From Shigella phage vB_SboS_Gloob: DNA of 64,000 nucleotides. This document shows positions 1 through 62,005 of this stretch, one piece after another. The translations under genes and the position numbers were made by a program. How positions within the stretch are numbered: position 1 is the first letter of the stretch; every line of letters starts with the position of its first letter. The notes under the pieces were generated by a model. The model searched no databases. It saw nothing but the letters and a program-made list of their open reading frames with translations, and was not told where the DNA came from. Where the stretch lies: the sequence record OL615011. The stretch is one strand, 5' to 3'.

Positions 1-2757
1 ATGAAAATGCGCAAGTCCGAGCACTTCATCCGCTCGTCGTCTTCCATTCAGGGGCAGGCGTTTAACGTCAAAATGAACGACAAGATGTTTGAGACTCTGT
101 TCTCATCATTGTATCGTTACAAAGAGGCTGCAGCCCTGCGTGAAACCACCTGTAACGCCATCGACTCCCATGGCATGCGTGATCGTATGCACCGCATGGT
201 AGCATCCCACTACGCGCCTCTCACTCCCCCTCCTGCCCGCCACAGCAAATATCTCGCGCCGAAGGGCACACGAGTTGTTGTGCATTTGCCTGATGACTTT
301 GAGCCATGGCTGGAAATCCGTGATTACGGTATCGGTCTGCCGCTTGAGAAGATCATCGGTGAAGCCATCCCAGCGCAGGAAGATGAGGTGCTGCTGGAAG
401 GCAACATGGTCGTGAAGGAAGACGAGATCCCCGATTCGGCCGAAGTCATCGGTATTCCAGGGTTCTACAATGGGTCTTTGGTGTTCCGTCGTGAAGACGG
501 CGAGATCATTCGCACGCCTGGATTGTACACCACCCTCTTCCACAGTACGAAGGAAGAAGATGATGATCAGATTGGGGCATTCGGTCTTGGCTCCAAATCA
601 CCATTTGCGGTATCGGATTCGTTCACTGTGGAAAGCCGCATGGACGGCAAACTCCATCGCTTCCTGATGTACCTGAATGCCAAGCGCATCCCAACGGTCG
701 ATCTGATCACCAAAGATCTTGAAACCCGTGATCCTAAGCCGGAAGACACCGATGAGTTCAACGGCATGACGGTGAAGATCCCGGTGAAGAACGCTCGTTT
801 CTCTGCATTCTCCGATGAACTGGTCCGTCTTGGTCGTGTTATGCGCCCTGAACAACGCCCAATTGTTGAGAACGCTTCATACCGCTTCAGCTGGGAAGAT
901 ATCAGTTATGATTTCAAGGTCAACAACACGTACATCCAGCCGAAAGGCCAGGGGAACACCCATTATGCTGTGATGGGCGGCGTGTCATACCCGATTGACC
1001 TGGACCAGCTGGACCCGGACACTGCTTCCATCATGAGCAAGTTCCCGTCGTCCTATACATTCTTTGAACTCGGCTCGCTGAACGTACCGCCGTCGCGTGA
1101 AGACCTGTCGTATGACGAATTCACGCGTGAGACGCTCTCTGAGGAGTTTAAGGGCACCGCCAATGCAATCTTGACAGAAAAGATGCGCGACCTGGAGTTG
1201 GCGTGTAAGCGTGGTCCTCTTGCCCTGTATATGGAGAAGGCAAGACTGAGCGAAATGTTCGGCAGCGGGTTCCGTAAGATGGTTGAAAAGGAATACCCGG
1301 CGGACAAGCGCTTCCATGATTCATATTACCGTTACCCGCTGCCTGTTGAGATTGATCGCGATTATGACCATACCGCGCCGTTCAATGAGCTGTCATCGCC
1401 GTTCTCTATGGAGATCTTCTATGGCTGGGGTGAGTCCAGTACCCTGACCATTTCAGAAATCCAGAAGTGGATTGATCGCGGACAGCATGTTACTGTGGTG
1501 ATCGAAGACAGTGTTCGTGCACGTAATCTGAAGATCAAGCAGCTGAAAGATACAGGGACGATGGTCATCGTGGCCAAGCCGAACACATCCTATGTCACCA
1601 AGCGCAACCAATCTAAGGACAACCCTGCGTTCAAGAATTCTCAGGCTCTCTATGATTTCTTTGAAACTTGGATCGGCAAAGAAGAAACGACGGTCGATTA
1701 TCTGTGCTTCGCTGACAAGTTCGTAGATTGGCTGAGTGCGGTGCTGGAGCCTGCTGAAGTTAAGTTCATGAACGAACTGACGTATGTCACGCCTCCGGTC
1801 ACCAAAGACCCTGGCCTGTTTCCGTTCACGTCCAGCAACTTCGACATAAAACAGTATGAAGAACTGACTGGTGAACAGATCTCGGATATTATCAACAAGG
1901 GCGAGCGCATCGTCTATATCGAAGTGTCTGGGCACGAGTGTATCCACCAAGTAATGGACAGAACGTTGACAGCTGCGGCGGCGCGGGGTATTCGTAAATC
2001 TCTGTATGAGCACGCAGTCAGTGTTGACGATGAAGGCAAGCCAGTGTATATCAGCGACATGCTGAACGTTCACAACAGGATCTTCCTGGCTCGCCGTAAA
2101 TCCGTGCCAATGATGAAGAAGTTCCCAGAAGTCTTCATCCCGATCGATGAAATCCTGAAGATCATGTTGGAAAACGTGAAGCCTATGATGGAGCGCGATA
2201 GCGCCAGGCGCATACTGGAATCATACCGCCGCATGCGCCTTGGGGCGGATCGATTAAAATACGGGAGCCGTCTGGTTCACCAGGCGTTTGGTGATGTTGA
2301 AGACGATCGTTATGGCAAATTGGTCAGCCGTTACAACAAGTTAATGAAAGTCGTGGACGATATCTTGGATGAGCAGACTGTACGTCATTACCAAAGCCTG
2401 GCGAAAGCCCCGGTTTCAATCAATGACAAGCGCCGCTTTAGCCATTTCCAGGACACAATACATTCTCTTAACGTGAATTTGTACGCCAACGAGCGTGACG
2501 AAAAGATCTTCCGTTCAGAACATCAGATGCTACAGATCTTTGGCTACGCTTCGGATGTGTTGCGGTCTCATGGATTTACACCGTTTGATATATCGAGGAC
2601 TCCGTCATTGAAAGCAAGGCGGGAAAACCGATTGACCATCGAGCGTCACCGTGTTATCCGGTTCTTGAAAGAGAATTACAAACCAAGCGCCCTGAACCCG
2701 ATTGAAAATTCTTCGGATTACTTGGACGTTATTTCAAATTCCATCATCAGGGCATAA
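1..2757 (+). CDS. rIIA: rIIA-like protein; begins at window edge, may be 5' truncated
   Basis: 918-aa ORF; N-terminal GHKL-ATPase-like motif ETTCNAIDSHG; directly followed by an rIIB homolog as in T4. Confidence 0.6.
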   Translation: MKMRKSEHFIRSSSSIQGQAFNVKMNDKMFETLFSSLYRYKEAAALRETTCNAIDSHGMRDRMHRMVASHYAPLTPPPARHSKYLAPKGTRVVVHLPDDFEPWLEIRDYGIGLPLEKIIGEAIPAQEDEVLLEGNMVVKEDEIPDSAEVIGIPGFYNGSLVFRREDGEIIRTPGLYTTLFHSTKEEDDDQIGAFGLGSKSPFAVSDSFTVESRMDGKLHRFLMYLNAKRIPTVDLITKDLETRDPKPEDTDEFNGMTVKIPVKNARFSAFSDELVRLGRVMRPEQRPIVENASYRFSWEDISYDFKVNNTYIQPKGQGNTHYAVMGGVSYPIDLDQLDPDTASIMSKFPSSYTFFELGSLNVPPSREDLSYDEFTRETLSEEFKGTANAILTEKMRDLELACKRGPLALYMEKARLSEMFGSGFRKMVEKEYPADKRFHDSYYRYPLPVEIDRDYDHTAPFNELSSPFSMEIFYGWGESSTLTISEIQKWIDRGQHVTVVIEDSVRARNLKIKQLKDTGTMVIVAKPNTSYVTKRNQSKDNPAFKNSQALYDFFETWIGKEETTVDYLCFADKFVDWLSAVLEPAEVKFMNELTYVTPPVTKDPGLFPFTSSNFDIKQYEELTGEQISDIINKGERIVYIEVSGHECIHQVMDRTLTAAAARGIRKSLYEHAVSVDDEGKPVYISDMLNVHNRIFLARRKSVPMMKKFPEVFIPIDEILKIMLENVKPMMERDSARRILESYRRMRLGADRLKYGSRLVHQAFGDVEDDRYGKLVSRYNKLMKVVDDILDEQTVRHYQSLAKAPVSINDKRRFSHFQDTIHSLNVNLYANERDEKIFRSEHQMLQIFGYASDVLRSHGFTPFDISRTPSLKARRENRLTIERHRVIRFLKENYKPSALNPIENSSDYLDVISNSIIRA

Positions 2758-2788: not shown

Positions 2789-4351
2789 ATGAACAAGATT
2801 GACGAAAAGATCCTCAAGCATTTGAAGGCAGGCATGAGCCAGAGCGCAATTGCTACTCTGTTGGGCATACCCCGCTCGACTGTACAACGTGTTGCAGACA
2901 CGGAATTCGGTGTTAACCCGTTATCGCTGAAATCTCTGACCACTGAAGAGATTCAGCAGATTCAGGTGAAGAGCAAGGCTGGTGAAAGCAACCGCGCCCT
3001 GGCTGAGTTCTTTGCTGTAAGCGCCAAGACCATTGCTCGCGCTCTGCTGGTCCGGATTACTGAGGAGGAAAACAAGGTAACTGTGATCTCTCCTATCAAG
3101 CAGGAAGAGCAGGAAGTATTCGAAGTACAGCCTGGTGGAACAGCCAAAGACAAAGATGGCTCAGAATGGTATGTTGGGGCATATCTACCGAACCACAACA
3201 AGTATCTGTGTCTCACCAACGACGGTAATTTCACAGGGGCTTTCTTTGAAAAGTCTGAATTGACTCCTGTTGAAGGTGATAGTCGCGCTTTCGGTGTTGA
3301 AGCTATCGGCAAGATGGCAGAAATTTCTGTGGCGCTGTCAGAAGGTGCGGATAAAGTTCCGAGCAACGTTGAAATCAGCGTTGTGGTTGACGGGGAAACC
3401 TATCCTATTCGTGGATCCTTGGATGCCCGTCGTCGTGTTGGTTACTTCGATGCCATCCTCGGCCGCACCCTGCGCCTGGCTCTGTCTTCTGTAGAATTCA
3501 CCGTCGCTATCAAAGACGTTGAAGAAGTGGCTGGTGACAAGAAGACCAAGCAGGACTTCGGCGCGAAAGACCTGGACGTGTTCCTGAACGAACACCAGAT
3601 CCTGATTCTGCCTGACAGCGTTGTTATCGCGATTGATGGCAAGCCGGAAACGATCACCACTTCACATCCAGCATATGACCGCATCGTACAGGCGATCAAA
3701 GACAAAGATGTGAAGCTGGCATACTCGCTGATGCGCCCTCGTGATGCCATCGCGAAGTACGCTGAAGGTCTGGTAGACGTGTCTGACAACCGTGTCCGCT
3801 GGTCTGGCCATGACATCACAGGCACATCCATCGCCAAGCGCGTACTGGCGCTGATGCTGAAGGGTGACTTCCACAACCTGGACCGCATGGCGAAGTTTAT
3901 GGACAAAATGTTCCAGAACCCGTCGGCTGCTCTGGTTCAGTCTGGGCGCATCTATGAGTTCATGGCGTACTCCGACATCGAAATTGACGACGATGGTGAC
4001 ATCATCCTCTACAAATCGGTGCGCGGCAACTACATGGACAAGCACAGCAACACGATCAGCAACGCCCCAGGCACTATCGTGCGCATGGCTCGCTCATTCG
4101 TGAACGACAACAACTCCGACCTGTGTTCATACGGTCTGCATGTGTGCTCCCTGGCCTACCTGAAGGAGTGTTTCGGTTCTGTGGGACAGCGTGTCGTTCG
4201 CTGTAAGCTGAACCCGAAAGATATCGTGTCTATCACCAACGATTACGGCTCCAGTAAAATCCGCTGCTGTGAATACATGGTGTTGGATGATTACACGGCT
4301 GAGTACAACCGTCAGCACAAGTCTATTGACGTGACAGGTCTGTACAAGTAA
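2789..4351 (+). CDS. rIIB: rIIB-like protein
   Basis: C-terminal region (NAPGTIVRM...CSYGLHVCS...RCCEYMVLDDY) closely resembles T4 rIIB as recalled; N-terminal HTH-like segment; ATG at 2789 inside longer track ORF. Confidence 0.75.
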   Translation: MNKIDEKILKHLKAGMSQSAIATLLGIPRSTVQRVADTEFGVNPLSLKSLTTEEIQQIQVKSKAGESNRALAEFFAVSAKTIARALLVRITEEENKVTVISPIKQEEQEVFEVQPGGTAKDKDGSEWYVGAYLPNHNKYLCLTNDGNFTGAFFEKSELTPVEGDSRAFGVEAIGKMAEISVALSEGADKVPSNVEISVVVDGETYPIRGSLDARRRVGYFDAILGRTLRLALSSVEFTVAIKDVEEVAGDKKTKQDFGAKDLDVFLNEHQILILPDSVVIAIDGKPETITTSHPAYDRIVQAIKDKDVKLAYSLMRPRDAIAKYAEGLVDVSDNRVRWSGHDITGTSIAKRVLALMLKGDFHNLDRMAKFMDKMFQNPSAALVQSGRIYEFMAYSDIEIDDDGDIILYKSVRGNYMDKHSNTISNAPGTIVRMARSFVNDNNSDLCSYGLHVCSLAYLKECFGSVGQRVVRCKLNPKDIVSITNDYGSSKIRCCEYMVLDDYTAEYNRQHKSIDVTGLYK

Positions 4352-4365
4352 TCTTCAGTAAACCT

Positions 4366-4393
4366 ACAAGGGGGCTTCGGCCTCCTTTTCTTT
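4366..4393 (+). terminator. rho-independent terminator downstream of rIIB
   Basis: GC stem with ttcg tetraloop (aagggggcttcggcctcctt) followed by T-run. Confidence 0.6.
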
Positions 4394-4402
4394 GAGGTCG
4401 AT

Positions 4403-4708
4403 ATGTTAACCACTGATGTCTACTTCAAATATGCGCGACAGACGTATGGCTCGCATCGTGTGACAGACAAATTCTTGATAGACTCCTTCCAGTTTGAAGG
4501 GGAGATGAGGGAATACTCACACAAACAATTCCCACCCCGTGAAGTTCATGGTGACCAGTTCGTGAAATTGTTCTGTCGCTGCGGCGGTTGTGACTTCACA
4601 GATGATGGGTATGCAATGCACGTATACTGCTGCAATTGCTGTGGTAAATACATAACAGTCTATAGGAGAACCAATCATGGCGAAGAAACCCGAAACCAAG
4701 AAAGTTGA
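4403..4708 (+). CDS. hypothetical Cys-rich protein
   Basis: 101-aa ORF with CRCGGC...CCNCCG cysteine cluster; overlaps next gene start. Confidence 0.4.
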   Translation: MLTTDVYFKYARQTYGSHRVTDKFLIDSFQFEGEMREYSHKQFPPREVHGDQFVKLFCRCGGCDFTDDGYAMHVYCCNCCGKYITVYRRTNHGEETRNQES

Positions 4709-5102
4709 AACCGCAACTACAGCCCCCGTTGATGACATCCAGGCGAAGGAGGAAGGTGTGTTACCCACCTACCTGCAACGCGCTGTGGACAACATGCCTA
4801 CAGGCGGGGATGGAGGCGTCGTCTACGCTGGCGGGTACGGTTGGGTGTGCGAATACCGAGACGGCACCAAAGAACTCCTTCAGGAGCTTCCAGGGCTGGC
4901 GTCCACGCTGAAGCGTTATGGTCGCGACAAGTATGGCAAGCCGTTTGAGAAGGGCGCTGTCGTCTCCACCAACATTACAGCAGATACTCTGAACCTTCTG
5001 GGTGTGGACGACCTGAAGCTGCTGGCTGAACCTTTGGGTATCACAGTAGAAGATCGCATTACGTTGATTGCTCAACTGATCGAAAAATTGCAGATTAAAT
5101 AA
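4677..5102 (+). CDS. hypothetical protein
   Basis: 141-aa ORF preceded by AGGAGA ribosome-binding site. Confidence 0.6.
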   Translation: MAKKPETKKVETATTAPVDDIQAKEEGVLPTYLQRAVDNMPTGGDGGVVYAGGYGWVCEYRDGTKELLQELPGLASTLKRYGRDKYGKPFEKGAVVSTNITADTLNLLGVDDLKLLAEPLGITVEDRITLIAQLIEKLQIK

Positions 5103-5131
5103 AGCAGTGTACAACAGCTGAATTAATCTAT

Positions 5132-5524
5132 ATGGTTATCGTTGACGAAAGCAATCTGATAGAGTATGCCCTGAGGCATTACATTGTTGATTCTATCTCA
5201 CGGGATGAGTTGCTGACAGACATACAGCGAATTTCGCTAATTAACCAATCATTGAAGAGATTTGTGCCTGGCAAGAGTCCAAGGCTCATATTGAATCAGC
5301 TGATCACTCTCTTCAATACGTTCGAAGCAGAAGCAGTCTGTCGTATGCTTGTGTTGAAAACGGATAAGTCTCAGCTTCCGCGCCTCAAGGCTGCTTTGTT
5401 GACGTTAGGCGTATGGCGTGATGATTTATGTTCCGGTTCATACGAACCAGATAACGAGCTATTAATGGCTCTGAACAACGATTTGGGCGAGTGGAGGAAA
5501 CCATGCCAACAATCACTGTATTAG
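5132..5524 (+). CDS. hypothetical protein
   Basis: 130-aa ORF, no clear RBS. Confidence 0.4.
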   Translation: MVIVDESNLIEYALRHYIVDSISRDELLTDIQRISLINQSLKRFVPGKSPRLILNQLITLFNTFEAEAVCRMLVLKTDKSQLPRLKAALLTLGVWRDDLCSGSYEPDNELLMALNNDLGEWRKPCQQSLY

Positions 5525-6312
5525 TAGCACCGGAAGTTGTTCGCAACAAACCGGAAACCGAGCGTCTGCACACCGTGACAGGCACTGCCAAGGGTTGGGA
5601 AAAGACCAGTCTTAACCAAGACCCTGACGAGATCCTGACCGAGTGTAAAGGCCTGGATACACTTCTGACCAAGAGCAATCTGCAGGCTGATGGCGTGACC
5701 AAAGTTGATCCAACCAAGCCTATCGGCTTCGAGATCTCTTACGAAATCCACGACCCAAGCGCCGTGCTGACCACTGGCCTGACCATCACCCCTGCGACTG
5801 CTGGTGGTGAAGTCGGTCAGGTTGTTGAACTGCTGGCGACCGTCGCTCCGGCGAACGCGACCTACCAGGGTGTCAACTGGTACTCTGGTGACATCACCAA
5901 AGCTGTACACATCGGCGGTGGTAAATTCAAGCTGCTGGCTCCTGGTTCTGTGACTGTGTACGGTGTTACCATCGAAGGTGGCCACACTGACTCTACCGTC
6001 ATCACAGTGGCGGGTGCGCTGGCTCTGTCTACTGATCTGGCTGCTTCTCAGGATGTAACAGCAGGTGAAGACGCAACCTTCACCATCGCTGCTACAGGCG
6101 GCACTACCCCATACACATATGCTTGGTACTTCTCTGATGTCCCTGGTGGTGAAGGTGTGGTGATCGATGCTGGCGCTAACGCCACTGCTGCAACTGCGAG
6201 CCTGGTTATCACCGCAGTTGATGCCGCAGACGAGGGTGAGTACTGGTGTGTTGTTGAAGACGCCGATGGCCACTCTGTGACCTCTACCCGTTGTGAAATG
6301 GCTGTGGTCTAA
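5503..6312 (+). CDS. Ig-like domain protein (Big_2-like plus I-set-like), possible Hoc-like surface protein
   Basis: GGAGGAAACC RBS before ATG 5503; tandem Ig-like segments (YQGVNWYSGD...VTVYGVTIEGG; DATFTIAATGG...DEGEYWCVVEDADG). Confidence 0.6.
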   Translation: MPTITVLVAPEVVRNKPETERLHTVTGTAKGWEKTSLNQDPDEILTECKGLDTLLTKSNLQADGVTKVDPTKPIGFEISYEIHDPSAVLTTGLTITPATAGGEVGQVVELLATVAPANATYQGVNWYSGDITKAVHIGGGKFKLLAPGSVTVYGVTIEGGHTDSTVITVAGALALSTDLAASQDVTAGEDATFTIAATGGTTPYTYAWYFSDVPGGEGVVIDAGANATAATASLVITAVDAADEGEYWCVVEDADGHSVTSTRCEMAVV

Positions 6313-6314
6313 TC

Positions 6315-6545
6315 ATGAAGGGCTTCCAGGACTTTCTTGAAGACTCGGCAGCCCCTGGAACCACGACCGCCGATGTGGGGAAACCCGAAGGCGGTATGGT
6401 GAAAGAGCCTGTCAAGAAACCCAAGGATCTTGAGGAAGAACAAGAGCAGACCGACTTCCAAAAGATCTTTGGGAATATCTTCAAAGACCTCGACCTGAAG
6501 AATGCACGAAGGTGGAACTTCAGGACAGGCAAATATGAAGACTAA
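6315..6545 (+). CDS. small protein with capsid-targeting-sequence-like N-terminus (MKGFQDFLED)
   Basis: N-terminus matches the MKxFQDFLTE paralog family in this window and resembles T4 internal-protein CTS MKTYQEFIAE. Confidence 0.6.
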   Translation: MKGFQDFLEDSAAPGTTTADVGKPEGGMVKEPVKKPKDLEEEQEQTDFQKIFGNIFKDLDLKNARRWNFRTGKYED

Positions 6546-6570
6546 AAGAGGCTCCGGCCTCTTTTTCATT
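6546..6570 (+). terminator. rho-independent terminator
   Basis: agaggctccggcctct hairpin followed by TTTTT. Confidence 0.6.
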
Positions 6571-6633
6571 TCCAGCATTCGGTGTATAATGGACCCGTTC
6601 CCCATGAGCGGAACCTAACTGAGGATACACCAA

Positions 6634-7146
6634 ATGCAATCCATGATCAAACGTAAAGTAGAAATCTCCCTGAATGCCCATGTTGAAATGATCCAGCAGC
6701 TTGTGTCTGACGCATATGAGGTACAAAAGGATCGCCAATCGAAGGGAGGCGTGATGGACCCCACCTGTCCCGGAAACATACTACACTATCGCATGCTGCG
6801 CTGGACTGGGCATACGGCTGCTCTGAAGAAACTGCTTTCTAAAAGATTCCAGGCCGAAAACGATGCCTATGTGTTTGGCGTCTTCCATAATTCGCGTGAA
6901 CGCGATGCGCTCTTCTATCCTTCCCGCAACCCAAAGACAGGCGAAGAACTGCCTATCCCTGATGTCGACAAGGAAGAGAGCACGGCCACCATCGCCCATT
7001 TCATGGGCACGAATATCGATAAAGCAAACATCATCGTGTTCTCTGATACACTTCATGATCCGAAACGCTTGGCTGCCGCCCATGAAATGTTGCGCAATAG
7101 CCGCAGTGCTTTCACAAATTTGACTTTAGTAGTGTTTCTGGGCTAG
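6634..7146 (+). CDS. hypothetical protein
   Basis: 170-aa ORF; TATAAT-like box about 45 nt upstream. Confidence 0.55.
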   Translation: MQSMIKRKVEISLNAHVEMIQQLVSDAYEVQKDRQSKGGVMDPTCPGNILHYRMLRWTGHTAALKKLLSKRFQAENDAYVFGVFHNSRERDALFYPSRNPKTGEELPIPDVDKEESTATIAHFMGTNIDKANIIVFSDTLHDPKRLAAAHEMLRNSRSAFTNLTLVVFLG

Positions 7147-7195
7147 ATAGTTACAGGGGAGGAAACTCCCCTATTTCCCTAACAGGAGGCGCACA

Positions 7196-7393
7196 ATGTA
7201 CAAGTTCAGAATTAACAGAGAACGTAATTCGTTCAAGTTCGGTGTAGTCGCTGGAGTTTGTTTGTTCCTGGCGCTCGAAAGCGTTGTCAGCCTGCTTACA
7301 ACATCACAAATGCAGGTGACTCGTTACCTACTTGCCATTATATTTTCTGCTGTCGGTTTACTCTGCTCCTATTTGGGGTGTGTGAAGAAATAA
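7196..7393 (+). CDS. small membrane protein (two predicted TM helices)
   Basis: AGGAGG RBS; hydrophobic segments VVAGVCLFLALESVV and LLAIIFSAVGLLCSYL. Confidence 0.55.
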   Translation: MYKFRINRERNSFKFGVVAGVCLFLALESVVSLLTTSQMQVTRYLLAIIFSAVGLLCSYLGCVKK

Positions 7394-7435
7394 ACTGGCT
7401 GCACACAGCAATACTTTGATTTGAGAAACTACATC

Positions 7436-7924
7436 ATGATGCTGTTAATGAGCGTTCCACAGAACAAGATGACCCCTGAAACAGAGGGTAAGAATCACTT
7501 CAACATCTACAGCCAGAGCCAAACGGAACTCGGGCGCTTCCTCTCGCATTTTGCCCATCATCCAGTGACTACCTATGAGCACGGCGTGTTCAACTCCATG
7601 GAAGGCTACTGGTATTGGCTAAAGTACAGGGATGACAACCTGCGCTTGCTCGACGGCTACGAAGCCAAGCAATATGGGCAGGGGTTGGCGGCCACTCGCA
7701 TCGCTGTCCTTGATCCATCATCCGAAGAATTCAAGCGCGACATTCTGTTTGCCACCAGCATGAAACTCCAGACAATGCCCGACCTGCTGAAGATCAGATT
7801 GGCGTACAGTCGACTCCCTCTGATCCATGCATACGTTCGGAACGGGAAATATAGTTTTCAAAACTCTATGGACTTTATCATAGACCACATTAATCGTCTC
7901 CGCATACAAGGAACTTTGAAATGA
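7436..7924 (+). CDS. hypothetical protein
   Basis: first ATG of track ORF (track start is TTG); stop overlaps next gene start (ATGA). Confidence 0.5.
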   Translation: MMLLMSVPQNKMTPETEGKNHFNIYSQSQTELGRFLSHFAHHPVTTYEHGVFNSMEGYWYWLKYRDDNLRLLDGYEAKQYGQGLAATRIAVLDPSSEEFKRDILFATSMKLQTMPDLLKIRLAYSRLPLIHAYVRNGKYSFQNSMDFIIDHINRLRIQGTLK

Positions 7925-8502
7925 AATTTCTACATACCATCATTGGCACTTCTTACGATTGCACTGCTCATTGCCCTGACCGTTCGTCTGTGTTCGTCCT
8001 AGGTAAACTGGTAGAAGAATTGTGTGAGCTGTCTGATGTCTACAATGGCCTGGCGGCGTCGGAACCCCTGAACGGTGAAATCGCTGATGTTATCATCTCT
8101 GCGATTGATTTGCTATATGTCGTGGAGTTTAACCCTCACCAAATCAATGGTTGCATGAACAAGGAAGAAATGATCGATTCTGTTATCTTCCGTCTTGCAG
8201 AATTGGGGGCGACAGAATCAAAAGATGTGGAGAGCCACTGGTTCCATGTGGGTGATCTGAAACCGGAGAAGCATCTGGCGCTGGCCTTGCACTATCTAGG
8301 CAGAACAACCCGCCTTTTGAACCAACCATACCGTTCAGAAGACGATCTGGCGTACCTGGTGGACAGGATCATCACCTTCGCGGCCAAAATGGCTTGCGCT
8401 GTTGGCATCGTCAACTCTGTGTCTCAGTCGGACACGCGAGTGAAGGTGGAACACGCTATTGAACACAAAGTTGAAAAGTGGCGCACTAAATTTGGTCTAT
8501 AA
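7921..8502 (+). CDS. MazG-like nucleoside triphosphate pyrophosphohydrolase (putative)
   Basis: all-alpha MazG-like acidic motif LVEELCELSD...EIADVIISAIDL. Confidence 0.5.
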   Translation: MKFLHTIIGTSYDCTAHCPDRSSVFVLGKLVEELCELSDVYNGLAASEPLNGEIADVIISAIDLLYVVEFNPHQINGCMNKEEMIDSVIFRLAELGATESKDVESHWFHVGDLKPEKHLALALHYLGRTTRLLNQPYRSEDDLAYLVDRIITFAAKMACAVGIVNSVSQSDTRVKVEHAIEHKVEKWRTKFGL

Positions 8503-59867: not shown

Positions 59868-60221
59868 TTACGACAGCTGCTTCAGTTTGTAGATCGTCTG
59901 ATAGCACAGCGTCTTGATTTCATCAAGCGTGTTCTGAAGGTGGGAGTCGCACTGCCTGTAGATGCCATCGACGTCTATCACCACGCTGTTGACATAGGAG
60001 ATAGGGTCTGGGTTATAGAGCTTGATGTTCTCAAACGACGGAACGTACTGGCCACCCGCACCGATGTATGCTTCGGTAAACGTGTCCAGCAAGTCCTCCA
60101 GTTCCCCGTAGAACTCCCCGAGAGCTTTGTGCTTGGCGTAGGACGTTGTAACGAAGTGCAGGGCATGAGAGTGGGCTATAGCAAGCAGTCCACGGTTGAT
60201 GAAAATACTCGCGTTAACCAT
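59868..60221 (-). CDS. hypothetical protein
   Basis: 117-aa ORF. Confidence 0.45.
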   Translation of the reverse strand: MVNASIFINRGLLAIAHSHALHFVTTSYAKHKALGEFYGELEDLLDTFTEAYIGAGGQYVPSFENIKLYNPDPISYVNSVVIDVDGIYRQCDSHLQNTLDEIKTLCYQTIYKLKQLS

Positions 60222-60310: not shown

Positions 60311-60916
60311 ATGAAAACTTTTCAAGACTTTTTGACCGAAGCCGCGCCGCCGATGTCTGTTCATATCAAGGCAGACAAGATCGGCAAGTCCACCGAAGAC
60401 AATATCGGTACTTTCTTGCGAGTTAGTGTTAGTGGCGACAAAGCTACTTTTGAAACCCCAGACGGGCGCAAGATAATCCTGACCAATGCCAAAGACATCA
60501 TTTCCGCATCTGGCCTGAAAGATGGCCAGTTTGCCAGTGCCCAGATGATTGACAAGGTTGATACTGACACCGCTGTCAAGTACAACAAATCAGGCAAATA
60601 TATTGACTTGTTGGATGTCAAATCAGGTATGGGCAATTCCTTTATCTCCATTGACGGTAACAAGCAATGGAAAGAAATGACCGAAGGTGGTTGGTATGCG
60701 TATAAAGGCGGTCGCCCCGGCTTGGCTCGTTATAAGATCGCCATGGTTATGGGACCTCATGCGGGTATGCCATCTCCTGGGGAAGATATTGAATACGAGT
60801 TACCGAATGGCGGCAAAGAACGCGGAACCGTCATGAAACTGAATGGTGCATCCAAGCTGATGGACGTCAAAAACGAAAAAGGTAAGAAAGTACAAGTCAG
60901 TATGTATGTGAAATAA
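60311..60916 (+). CDS. internal-protein-like protein with CTS-like N-terminus (MKTFQDFLTE)
   Basis: N-terminal decapeptide nearly matches T4 capsid targeting sequence; L-x-E cleavage context. Confidence 0.6.
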   Translation: MKTFQDFLTEAAPPMSVHIKADKIGKSTEDNIGTFLRVSVSGDKATFETPDGRKIILTNAKDIISASGLKDGQFASAQMIDKVDTDTAVKYNKSGKYIDLLDVKSGMGNSFISIDGNKQWKEMTEGGWYAYKGGRPGLARYKIAMVMGPHAGMPSPGEDIEYELPNGGKERGTVMKLNGASKLMDVKNEKGKKVQVSMYVK

Positions 60917-60944: not shown

Positions 60945-61427
60945 TTATGGCTTGACCAGAGTCATCTTGACGGTTTCACCCGTGTCGGTGTCTGTCAGGG
61001 TCATGACGTCTTGTGCGTTCACAGACTTCACTTTCCCTTGTCGCTTGTCGCCGTTGCGGTTGTAGTAGTCGATCAGTTCGCCTTTGGTTGGGCGGCCAAC
61101 ATCGGTGATGTCATACTGGCCGCGCTTCCCCAGCGCCCGGTGATCCACGCCTTCGGTCTTTAGATTCTTAACCCCCTCCAGGAATGCTTTGAGTAGATCG
61201 CCTGGGATAGGGGGCAGCTTCAGCTTCTCGGCCAATTCCTGTGGCTCACCTTTGATGGTCGAACCACTAGGGGACTTGTGCCCGTAGAACGTACCAGGAG
61301 TCTTGCCTTGATAGATTGAATAGCTCGGACCTTTGCTGTCGTACACAAGGGAACAAGTCCATTCAGTCTTGACTAAACGCCAACCAACTTGCTTGACCTC
61401 CGTTAGGAAGTCCTGGAACCCTTTCAT
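60945..61427 (-). CDS. internal-protein-like protein with CTS-like N-terminus (MKGFQDFLTE)
   Basis: same N-terminal motif as 60311 and 6315 genes; unrelated body. Confidence 0.6.
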   Translation of the reverse strand: MKGFQDFLTEVKQVGWRLVKTEWTCSLVYDSKGPSYSIYQGKTPGTFYGHKSPSGSTIKGEPQELAEKLKLPPIPGDLLKAFLEGVKNLKTEGVDHRALGKRGQYDITDVGRPTKGELIDYYNRNGDKRQGKVKSVNAQDVMTLTDTDTGETVKMTLVKP

Positions 61428-61435
61428 ACATCCCC

Positions 61436-62005
61436 CTAGACAGGCTTAACGCCGAGGAACTTGGCAATGTCAGCAGCCAGGTTTTTACCCTTGCTGATAT
61501 CCTGCTCCTTGCCGTTGCAGGTGACGATCACATACGGGTCATCTTCACCACCGAAGTTCACGGTGATCGCCTTGCCGATGCCAGGGATGCCAGAGTATTC
61601 GAACTCAGTGCGACCACTCTTGCGGGACTTGCCAACACCCAGTGCTTTACCGATCATCTTGTCCATGTTCGCCAGTTCCTGAGCATAGGCTTCGGTCACC
61701 TGGCCTTTGTCGGCAGACTTGCCAAAGAAGAATTCGAAGCCGTCATGGACAGCAACGACTTCCTGACCTTGGGAGATACCGTGAGTCTGGTCTGGGGTCA
61801 GCTTCACCTTGATGTTGTTGCCGTTGGTTAACTCCAGGTTGTAGACATCCGCCTGATTGTCAGGAGTGATCTGGGTCACGGTAGCACCGGAGCACCACTG
61901 AGTGCCGTCAGCTTGCTTGGTGATGGATACGCTTTTGCCCTGGACACCAGCATGGGTCTGAGGCTGAGCAGCTTGTTCTTTAAAGTATTGAAGGAACGGT
62001 TTCAT
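61436..62005 (-). CDS. internal-protein-like protein with divergent CTS-like N-terminus (MKPFLQYFKE)
   Basis: MK-x-F ... F-x-E pattern; TATAAATA box and GAGGAG RBS upstream. Confidence 0.55.
   Translation of the reverse strand: MKPFLQYFKEQAAQPQTHAGVQGKSVSITKQADGTQWCSGATVTQITPDNQADVYNLELTNGNNIKVKLTPDQTHGISQGQEVVAVHDGFEFFFGKSADKGQVTEAYAQELANMDKMIGKALGVGKSRKSGRTEFEYSGIPGIGKAITVNFGGEDDPYVIVTCNGKEQDISKGKNLAADIAKFLGVKPV

Follow-up and report, generated by a model that had tools for sequence, protein, structure and literature searches.

An Ig-bearing protein of Shigella phage vB_SboS_Gloob as a probable late-made, N-terminally anchored surface decoration of the virion

Gene identity and start codon

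The window analysed here is the whole 64,000-nt stretch of Shigella phage vB_SboS_Gloob (sequence record OL615011), an Agtrevirus sequence with 97.8% identity to Shigella phage Ag3. The gene under study encodes an acidic protein (computed pI 4.3) with Ig-like domains, hereafter the Ig protein, and its position is given together with the neighboring features in Table 1. The ORF listing and the sequence place its ATG at 5503 and its stop codon at 6310-6312. The frame is open further 5' to a GTG at 5491, and ATG 5503 was taken as the start because it has a ribosome-binding site and because the same start is annotated in Ag3, LIMEstone1 and CBA120. The 269-residue reading frame with a strong ribosome-binding site described by the first-pass annotation is thus retained, and sequence comparison reveals a purine-rich Shine-Dalgarno element at the gene in CBA120, Serratia 2050H1 and Erwinia Bue1 as well. 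A 250-residue antisense ORF at 5521-6273 lies opposite the gene; we read it as a probable shadow ORF, solely on the ground that the plus-strand frame has a ribosome-binding site, Pfam and PHROG matches and annotation in relatives.

Table 1. Features of the locus, with coordinates in the window.
Feature	Position	Strand	Basis or remark
Rho-independent terminator ending the rIIA-rIIB unit	4368..4394	+	Terminator scan; annotated in LIMEstone1; hairpin -14.7 kcal/mol
TAAATA late-promoter-like element, GGTAAATA in context	4645..4650	+	26 nt before ORF004 ATG; putative late promoter in LIMEstone1
ORF004, 141 aa, DUF7440 / PHROG 3795; opens the cassette	4677..5102	+	Pfam DUF7440, E 2.6e-47
Second TAAATA element	5096..5101	+	30 nt before ORF005 ATG
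ORF005, 130 aa, DUF7207	5132..5524	+	Pfam DUF7207, E 1e-27
Shine-Dalgarno GGAGG	5493..5497	+	5 nt before the ATG of the Ig protein gene; direct sequence reading
Ig-like virion protein CDS, 269 aa	5503..6312	+	ORF/sequence; orthologue of Ag3 orf00006, LIMEstone1 ORF006, CBA120 orf006
N-terminal domain, aa 1-85, presumed virion-anchoring module	5503..5757	+	Most conserved part, limited to Ackermannviridae
Big_2-type Ig-like domain	5758..6012	+	Pfam match aa 91-160
I-set/Ig_3-type Ig-like domain, very acidic (pI 4.05)	6013..6309	+	Pfam match aa 182-259
ORF007, 76 aa	6315..6545	+	Begins 2 nt past the stop codon of the Ig protein gene; T4-type CTS-like N-terminus
Rho-independent terminator ending the ORF004-ORF007 cassette	6547..6566	+	Sequence: AGAGGC-TCCG-GCCTCT, then TTTTT

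The PHROG 215 family, 'structural protein with Ig domain', matches residues 1-269 of the Ig protein (E 2.6e-80), and Ag3 orf00006, at identical coordinates, carries that same description. Identity reaches 96.3% with LIMEstone1 ORF006 and 99.6% with the protein of Salmonella phage P46FS4; about 270 Ackermannviridae genomes have an orthologue with 84-99.6% identity at this locus. Judged by sequence, the gene is one more allele of this Ackermannviridae (ViI-like phage) family. The family itself is already known, having been annotated and confirmed by proteomics in relatives and likened to Hoc in 2012, and the gene matters little as a discovery. Labels in public records vary among tail fibre, Ig-like tail protein, structural protein with Ig domain and Hoc.

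Cassette organization and late expression

The order rIIB, (ORF003), ORF004, ORF005, Ig protein gene, ORF007 and histone-like gene is common to Ag3, LIMEstone1, CBA120, 2050H1 and Bue1. ORF005 is co-oriented with the Ig protein gene and overlaps its start by 22 nt. The first-pass annotation had placed the gene in the early region next to rII. The position beside rII holds only loosely: the gene begins 1.15 kb past the rIIB stop, and three small ORFs as well as a rho-independent terminator lie in this interval. The terminator that closes the cassette folds with -13.6 kcal/mol (z = -4.6; none of 200 shuffled sequences was as stable) and is kept in CBA120, LIMEstone1, 2050H1 and Bue1. A SAP/HeH domain in ORF004, considered on account of the name of a BFVD match, found no support in Pfam.

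The perfect T4 late promoter TATAAATA, present in two copies in the whole window, is absent near the Ig protein gene, and the element preceding ORF004, GGTAAATA, differs from this perfect octamer. In Serratia 2050H1 and Erwinia Bue1, a perfect T4-type TATAAATA is located at the homologous position, directly past the rIIB terminator. Genome-wide, 11 of the 15 TAAATA hexamers precede an ORF start by 25-39 nt (binomial P about 2e-18), and the genes in question are of the T4 late type; they include gp48-, gp4-, gp54-, gp2- and gp5-like genes, the endolysin and orthologues of structural proteins confirmed by mass spectrometry. This positional signal may serve as a simple marker of late genes in Ackermannviridae. 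Late transcription of ORF004-ORF007 from the TAAATA elements is probable and in part shown, and the assignment to the early region is not confirmed for a gene situated in a terminator-bounded cassette with T4-type late-promoter-like elements.

ORF007, immediately downstream, starts with MKGFQDFLED, which resembles the capsid targeting sequence (CTS) of T4 IPII and IPIII, MKTYQEFIAE; T4 IPI begins MKTFKEF. The motif is retained by the ORF007 orthologues of CBA120, 2050H1 and Bue1, the last of which is unannotated. The earlier statement that the Ig protein gene lies directly upstream of a CTS-like gene is accordingly correct.

Domain architecture of the Ig protein

The Ig protein can be divided into three parts: an N-terminal domain, a Big_2 Ig-like domain and an I-set/Ig_3 domain. 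In Pfam, the Big_2 model (PF02368) scores 23.3 bits, a borderline value relative to its gathering threshold of 22.8, and a sequence search of the PDB pairs this domain with the Big_2 domain of 7quz (E 2.7e-9). The C-terminal domain is matched by Ig_3 (PF13927), which scores 39.7 bits (cut-off 30; E 7.1e-10) over residues 183-252, and by I-set (PF07679) at residues 182-259, with 30.3 bits against 23.7 (E 4.3e-7). In the AlphaFold2 prediction, residues 83-269 fold into two beta-sandwiches, with mean pLDDT over ten-residue blocks of 83-97 from residue 91 onwards (83-94 for the Big_2 part, residues 91-170) and of 71 for the block 81-90, and a Foldseek search with the model retrieves tandem Ig structures. 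With the Pfam cut-offs passed and two Ig folds modelled, both Ig-like segments proposed by the first-pass annotation are upheld, including by the structure prediction that it had suggested as a check. Among solved structures, the top matches of the I-set domain are the decoration protein gp17 of N4 (9e99, E 1.6e-10) and pb10 of T5 (5lxk and 8zvi, about 3e-7).

A family-specific N-terminal domain

Residues 1-85 hold 48 of the 61 invariant alignment columns, and their mean identity is 88%, compared with 65-71% for the Ig domains. Matches to the domain occur solely in Ackermannviridae, in 282 records, all of which contain the Ig protein gene. In other lineages, the same N-terminus is followed by two or three Big_2 domains that replace the C-terminal array. 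An exhaustive HMMER search against 1.84 billion representatives returned 12 matches, about eight of them real and all of Ackermannviridae type; the others were repeat proteins (of the SpaA, WD40 and ankyrin types and one of unknown type) and were discarded as false positives. Scans of IMG/VR and of metagenomes likewise recovered Ackermannviridae loci only, on IMG/VR contigs of 152-164 kb and on three metagenome contigs, two of them shorter than 2 kb. In the full-length AlphaFold2 model the pLDDT of this domain is below 50, and a confident model was obtained only when it was folded alone with an alignment of 11 sequences; modelled in this way, it is not predicted to be Ig-like.

Residues 11-64 of the domain weakly resemble residues 35-87 of ORF004. 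The Ig protein falls below the Pfam cut-off of 25 for DUF7440 (PF24224), with 22.2 bits and E 1.7e-4, and its homologues score 20.9-24.4 bits. All 11 N-terminal domain sequences match PHROG 3795, the ORF004 family (best E 7.5e-5), and hhalign gives a probability of 40% (E 2.9e-4). These comparisons are only suggestive of kinship with DUF7440 and ORF004. A bolder proposal, that residues 1-85 form an undescribed family-specific virion-docking fold of which ORF004, another product of the late cassette, is a stand-alone relative, appears to us quite improbable. Were it true, the phage would make two proteins on one docking module, one bearing Ig domains and the other a different C-terminal cargo, and the Ig protein and ORF004 would either vie for shared sites on the particle or occupy them together.

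Presence in virions and location on the particle

The presence of the protein in virions was assessed from published proteomics. In LIMEstone1, ESI-MS/MS of purified particles detected ORF006 (4 unique peptides, 21.9% coverage), and it was listed as a confirmed structural protein; its authors named it Hoc, in the sole proteomics paper that names the protein. In Sajous1 virions, gp83, a putative orthologue assigned by gene order only, was represented by 43 spectra. The portal and the sheath gave 89 spectra each, and because these two are equal, so that the counts do not track copy number, the Sajous1 spectra cannot discriminate head from tail. A late-made adhesin-like or envelope-directed protein, non-structural and merely co-purifying with particles, might be detected too, and the LIMEstone1 data do include rIIB, DNA ligase, PhoH and gp44. 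These, however, are low-coverage proteins with one peptide and less than 5% coverage, well below the values for ORF006; the Sajous1 spectra, the status of the gene as core to Ackermannviridae and an N-terminus constrained like a docking surface also speak against co-purification, which we regard as very improbable. The claim of the first-pass annotation that the gene encodes a virion protein, to be abandoned had the protein been absent from particles, is thus borne out for a 96.3%-identical orthologue, and we conclude with considerable confidence that the Ig protein is a late-made, virion-associated, Ig-bearing surface protein.

The explanation that best accommodates the data as a whole is probably that the Ig protein is made late and decorates the particle surface as an acidic protein fixed there by its N-terminus. 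The Ig protein gene would be transcribed late with ORF004, ORF005 and the CTS-bearing ORF007 from a cassette that is flanked by terminators and driven by the TAAATA elements, part of which the promoter analysis above already bears out. The product would enter the virion, as its close orthologue does, and the family-specific domain of about 85 residues may dock it on the particle. This role as an anchor is suggested because a conserved N-terminus with swapped C-terminal arrays is the pattern of pb10, of Sf14 gp20 and, inverted, of Hoc. The likeliest docking site would be the outer face of the gp23-like capsid lattice, as for T5 pb10 or Sf14 gp20. From there the acidic Big_2 and I-set domains, in that order, may project into the solvent and be exchanged between lineages. 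Purely on the analogy of Hoc and pb10, these domains might bind glycans such as host surface polysaccharide or mucus in a weak, multivalent manner, might prevent particles from clumping, or both, and the protein might be dispensable.

That the site is the capsid is the reading we favor, by a modest degree of confidence, since the top solved-structure matches of the I-set domain are N4 gp17 and T5 pb10, and since the next gene of the cassette, ORF007, begins with a T4-like CTS. The protein could instead be an accessory of the tail, neck or baseplate whose N-terminal domain docks on the sheath, the collar or the tailspike complex. Records of Vi01, CBA120, P46FS4 and many others call it 'tail fiber protein' or 'Ig-like tail protein'; PHROG families of major and minor tail proteins match the Big_2 and Ig regions, the Big_2 domain matching Ig appendages of major tail proteins; tblastn with this domain leads to genes of Stenotrophomonas phages labelled 'tail tube protein'; and virion mass spectrometry does not separate head from tail. 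Nevertheless, the Pfam and PHROG tail matches are restricted to mobile Ig modules, which are common to head and tail proteins, and the nearest sequence relatives of the Ig domains with solved structures are capsid decorators. Outside the Ig modules, Pfam and PHROG detect no homology to a fibre or spike shaft or to a receptor-binding domain; with 269 residues and neither a trimeric shaft nor such a domain, the protein does not resemble a fibre or spike. Moreover, its cassette is shared with the head-internal-type ORF007, far from the tail and tailspike clusters, the one proteomics paper to name it chose Hoc, and 'tail fibre' looks like a label copied from record to record. A tail, neck or baseplate location is therefore possible but, in our judgement, unlikely. 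Our literature search found no capsid cryo-EM of any Ackermannviridae member; as to head versus tail, the protein is absent from the family review, and the S117 tailocin paper contains no proteomics.

True orthology with T4 Hoc, whose hallmark is a conserved capsid-binding part at the C-terminus that contains an ESRNG loop, was considered too. PHROGs named 'Hoc-like head decoration' do match the Ig protein, in its I-set/Ig_3 domain alone. BLASTP against T4 Hoc, however, yields weak Ig-to-Ig similarity (E 0.024) with no alignment to Hoc residues about 290-376, and the polarity is reversed, with an Ig domain at the C-terminus and the conserved non-Ig domain at the N-terminus. Orthology was consequently rejected, its probability being close to nil. 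The term 'Hoc-like' of the first-pass annotation is apt as an analogy but not as homology, the conserved domain being N-terminal and unmatched to the capsid-binding domain of Hoc.

Labelling the gene 'tail fiber protein', as is widespread in Ackermannviridae records, is probably wrong, and the label is unfit for host-range predictions. The conserved N-terminal domain and the interchangeable Ig domains that follow it may also offer a natural handle for display and engineering on therapeutic or diagnostic phages once its binding site has been mapped.

Comparison with known systems

The likeness to T4 Hoc lies in an acidic string of Ig-like domains, two of them here and presumably exposed on the particle, in a T4-related myovirus and in a gene away from the main structural cluster; the reversed polarity and a presumed anchor unrelated to the C-terminal binder of Hoc set the two apart. 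Hoc proteins sit singly at the centres of major-capsid-protein hexamers and can be dispensed with in the laboratory. T5 pb10 and Sf14 gp20 provide a parallel in layout, with a conserved N-terminal non-Ig domain followed by one or more Ig-like domains that are solvent-exposed in those proteins. A presumed anchor more conserved than the Ig part is a further likeness, and an N-terminal capsid-binding domain is the characteristic feature of pb10 and gp20; no helical-bundle anchor homologous to the N-terminal domain of pb10 or to the capsid-binding domain of gp20 was found in the Ig protein. The I-set domain is also related in sequence to the C-terminal domain of pb10 (5lxk, E 3e-7).

In the case of N4 gp17, a 32 kDa decoration protein, residues 172-263 of the Ig protein align with gp17 residues 88-180 and share the motif GGxxPxTYxW; the Ag3 annotation itself records a similarity to gp17. 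Only this one domain is homologous to gp17, in contrast to the N-terminal domain, for which an Ig-like fold is not predicted. From the PHROG 215 proteins of other Ackermannviridae nothing substantive distinguishes the Ig protein: it shares with them homology over the full length, the three-part architecture, rIIB-ORF004-ORF005 upstream and ORF007 downstream, and an orthologue identified in virions by mass spectrometry.

Gene identity and presence in the virion

Bases 4000-8000 of the window align with Shigella phage Ag3 over their full length and at matching coordinates (97.8% identity), and with other Aglimvirinae (SKML-39, P46FS4, LIMEstone1) at 88-96% identity; from this sequence identity, the window is the left end of an Agtrevirus genome (Ackermannviridae, 'ViI-like'). 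The gene studied here (Ig gene) encodes a protein (Ig protein) that matches PHROG 215, 'structural protein with Ig domain', over its full length (E = 2.6e-80), with counterparts in Ag3 (orf00006) and LIMEstone1 (ORF006). A tblastn search with the protein retrieved 308 phage records, 269 of them with at least 80% coverage at 84-99.6% identity. The gene is already known, being annotated in the near-identical Ag3 and belonging to a named PHROG, and both the virion presence of the family and the Hoc analogy have been in print since 2012. GenBank and RefSeq give this one gene conflicting product names: tail fiber protein, putative tail protein, Ig-like tail protein, Ig-like virion protein, structural protein with Ig domain and unknown structural protein. 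The antisense ORF opposite it is provisionally read as a shadow ORF, solely because ribosome-binding site, domain hits and the annotated gene of related genomes all fall in the plus frame.

The first-pass annotation had proposed a virion protein, and a 96%-identical orthologue is indeed present in particles: LIMEstone1 ORF006 (96.3% identity) is labelled 'confirmed structural protein' in its record, the source cited for it as a virion protein being Table 2 of Adriaenssens et al. Virions of Sajous1 yielded 43 spectra for gp83, a 'putative tail fiber protein' encoded four genes from rIIB, which is probably the orthologue of the Ig protein.

Features of the window around the Ig gene and at related sites
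Feature	Position	Strand	Remark
rIIA	1-2757		window start
rIIB	2789-4351		annotated start
Rho-independent terminator	4368-4394		after rIIB
ORF003	4403-4708	+	101 aa, Cys-rich (FCRCGGC...CCNCCGK), zinc-ribbon-like
Putative late promoter TAAATA	4645-4650	+	annotated in LIMEstone1
ORF004	4677-5102	+	DUF7440 / PHROG 3795
TAAATA	5096	+	before ORF005
Shine-Dalgarno GGAGG	5493-5497	+	5 nt ahead of Ig gene ATG
Ig gene	5503-6312	+	ATG 5503, stop 6310-6312, 269 aa
Antisense ORF	5521-6273		250 aa
ORF007	6315-6545	+	leader MKGFQDFLED
Second terminator	6547-6566		after ORF007; -13.6 kcal/mol, z = -4.6
Extended -10 promoter TGTATAAT	6583-6590	+	right after cassette terminator
Histone-like DNA-binding gene	6634-7146		
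TAAATA examples	4645, 5096, 19797, 41348, 47494	+	
TAAATA examples	62036, 60257, 56365, 49984, 45166, 41372, 19824	-	
117-aa ORF	59868-60221	-	TAAATA ahead
CTS-like leader ORF	60311-60916	+	MKTFQDFLTE
CTS-like leader ORF	60945-61427	-	MKGFQDFLTE; starts 61427
CTS-like leader ORF	61436-62005	-	MKPFLQYFKE; starts 62005

A late cassette beside rII

The earlier placement of the Ig gene in an early region fails, as the gene lies in a terminator-bounded unit with late-promoter-like elements ahead of ORF004 and ORF005. The two terminators enclose ORF003, ORF004 (DUF7440), ORF005 (DUF7207), the Ig gene, which overlaps ORF005 by 22 nt, and ORF007. In Agtrevirus, Limestonevirus and Kuttervirus the rIIB terminator and the late promoter are separated by ORF003, and in the window the promoter element sits within the 3' end of this ORF. 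Serratia phage 2050H1 and Erwinia phage Bue1 do without ORF003; there the octamer TATAAATA, which matches the T4 late promoter perfectly, comes straight after the rIIB terminator and 24-28 nt ahead of ORF004. The homologous position in the window reads GGTAAATA. Beyond the cassette, the extended -10 element ahead of the histone-like gene, kept in CBA120 and LIMEstone1, would mark the return to host-sigma70-type (early) transcription.

Across both strands of the window TAAATA is under-represented (15 copies against about 31 expected), and for 11 of these copies an ORF of at least 100 aa has its first ATG 25-39 nt downstream (background expectation 1.3%; binomial P about 2e-18); the copies before ORF004 (26 nt) and ORF005 (30 nt) are two of the 11. 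The ORFs so preceded are of T4 late type (gp48-like tube cap, gp4-like head closure, gp54-like protein, gp2-like DNA end protector, gp5-like hub-lysozyme, resolvase, endolysin) and include orthologues of LIMEstone1 ORF078 and ORF080, both confirmed by mass spectrometry (MS). The full T4 octamer has only two copies in the window, and published work on Ackermannviridae describes a similar motif, CTAAATAcCcc. By its positioning, TAAATA behaves as a predicted late-promoter core of this family. The 117-aa ORF at 59868-60221 equals LIMEstone1 ORF078 in length and has a nearly identical N-terminus; the PHROG it matches bears the name 'starvation-inducible transcriptional regulator' (a Dps/ferritin-like name), odd for a virion protein.

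Together, the terminators, the late-promoter elements and the TAAATA positional signal argue strongly for late transcription of the Ig gene, most likely as part of a small late cassette wedged beside rII, which fits with the presence of its product in virions.

Domain architecture

Pfam places a Big_2 domain at residues 91-160 of the Ig protein, just above the cut-off (23.3 vs 22.8 bits), and Ig_3, I-set, ig and V-set matches at residues 182-263 (Ig_3 39.7 against a cut-off of 30; I-set 30.3 against 23.7), so that the two Ig-like segments described earlier, like the ribosome-binding site, are confirmed. An AlphaFold2 model built on a 23-sequence alignment shows two beta-sandwich domains in residues 83-269 (10-residue mean pLDDT 83-97 from residue 91; 71 for block 81-90), and Foldseek matched it to tandem-Ig structures in the PDB, bearing out the proposed fold. 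The protein is acidic (pI 4.3; I-set domain 4.05).

Among the 23 homologues the N-terminal segment is nearly invariant, with 48 of 61 invariant columns within residues 1-85, and is followed by a variable Ig array: Big_2 plus I-set in Agtrevirus, Limestonevirus, Kuttervirus and Taipeivirus types, and one, two or three Big_2 domains in other lineages. Mean pairwise identity among sequences of the same architecture is 0.88 for residues 1-85, 0.65 for Big_2 and 0.71 for I-set.

The N-terminal domain

Filter-free HMMER against 1.84 billion representatives gave 12 hits for the N-terminal domain (residues 1-85), about 8 of them real and all of these with the N-domain-plus-Big_2 architecture, and the 282 phage records found by tblastn were all Ackermannviridae-type genomes; IMG/VR and metagenome scans added none outside this family. 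As far as these sequence searches reach, the domain is restricted to the Ackermannviridae Ig protein family. PDB sequence searches retrieved nothing for it, even by profile at E <= 10, and its pLDDT is below 50 in the full-length prediction; equating it with the helical pb10 or Sf14 gp20 anchor was therefore rejected.

Residues 11-64 weakly but consistently resemble residues 35-87 of ORF004, encoded two genes upstream. DUF7440 scores 22.2 bits on the Ig protein (E = 1.7e-4) and 20.9-24.4 bits on homologues, all below the 25-bit cut-off; all 11 N-domain sequences match PHROG 3795, the ORF004 family (best E = 7.5e-5), and hhalign gives 40% probability (E = 2.9e-4). BFVD yields a weak match (E = 0.07), a Serratia phage protein of 132 aa that is possibly another member of this family. 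We regard this similarity as a lead only: the putative anchor module may have in ORF004 a stand-alone relative, encoded in the same late cassette. ORF004 is confined to Ackermannviridae, and its orthologues are absent from published virion lists.

Location on the particle and comparison with known decoration proteins

ORF007 starts 2 nt past the Ig gene stop codon, and its leader, like those of the other three CTS-like ORFs, resembles the starts of T4 IPIII and IPII (MKTYQEFIAE) and IPI (MKTFKEF); the capsid targeting sequence (CTS) is the N-terminal leader that loads T4 internal proteins into the prohead core. LIMEstone1 ORF080 (MKPFIQYFNE) and ORF082 (MSKPSFLQFMQE), MS-confirmed virion proteins, are orthologues or neighbours of these window ORFs. 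All four products are likely internal proteins loaded into the prohead core and cleaved past the leader. In Bue1 (NC_048702) an unannotated ORF007 orthologue of about 81 aa (MKTFKEFCESEAPS...; about 3028-3273, plus strand) lies between the Ig gene and a terminator, and its leader nearly equals the T4 IPI start.

That the Ig gene is probably transcribed together with CTS-type ORF007 is circumstantial evidence that the cassette is head-related. The main rival reading, under which the protein may instead sit on the tail or neck, is the one given in many records; the matches behind it are confined to mobile Ig modules, beyond which the 'tail fiber' label is without support. For the Big_2 domain, the PDB match is a bacterial Big_2-CBM56 structure, while in PHROGs it matches the Ig appendages carried by major tail proteins. 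The best solved-structure matches of the C-terminal Ig domain are capsid decoration proteins, N4 gp17 (9e99, middle domain, E = 1.6e-10) and T5 pb10 (8zvi, 5lxk; E about 3e-7), and 9d7z, an 'Ig-like domain-containing protein', is also among them. A literature search for capsid cryo-EM structures from Ackermannviridae found none. We infer that the capsid may be the site.

On the best explanation, the Ig protein would be expressed late and join the virion, docking through its conserved N-terminal domain as a putative anchor, with the two acidic Ig-like domains pointing outward; by analogy with Hoc and pb10, these would lend the particles a weak multivalent adhesion, stop them from clumping, or both. 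The protein may bind glycans and may be dispensable. The earlier description as Hoc-like holds for a way of working like Hoc/pb10-type decoration and not for descent: BLASTP against T4 Hoc detected only a weak similarity between Ig domains (E = 0.024), and the N-terminal domain is unlike the pb10 anchor, so that the protein belongs to neither family. T4 Hoc has its defining conserved capsid binder at the C-terminus, whereas the conserved part of the Ig protein is N-terminal.
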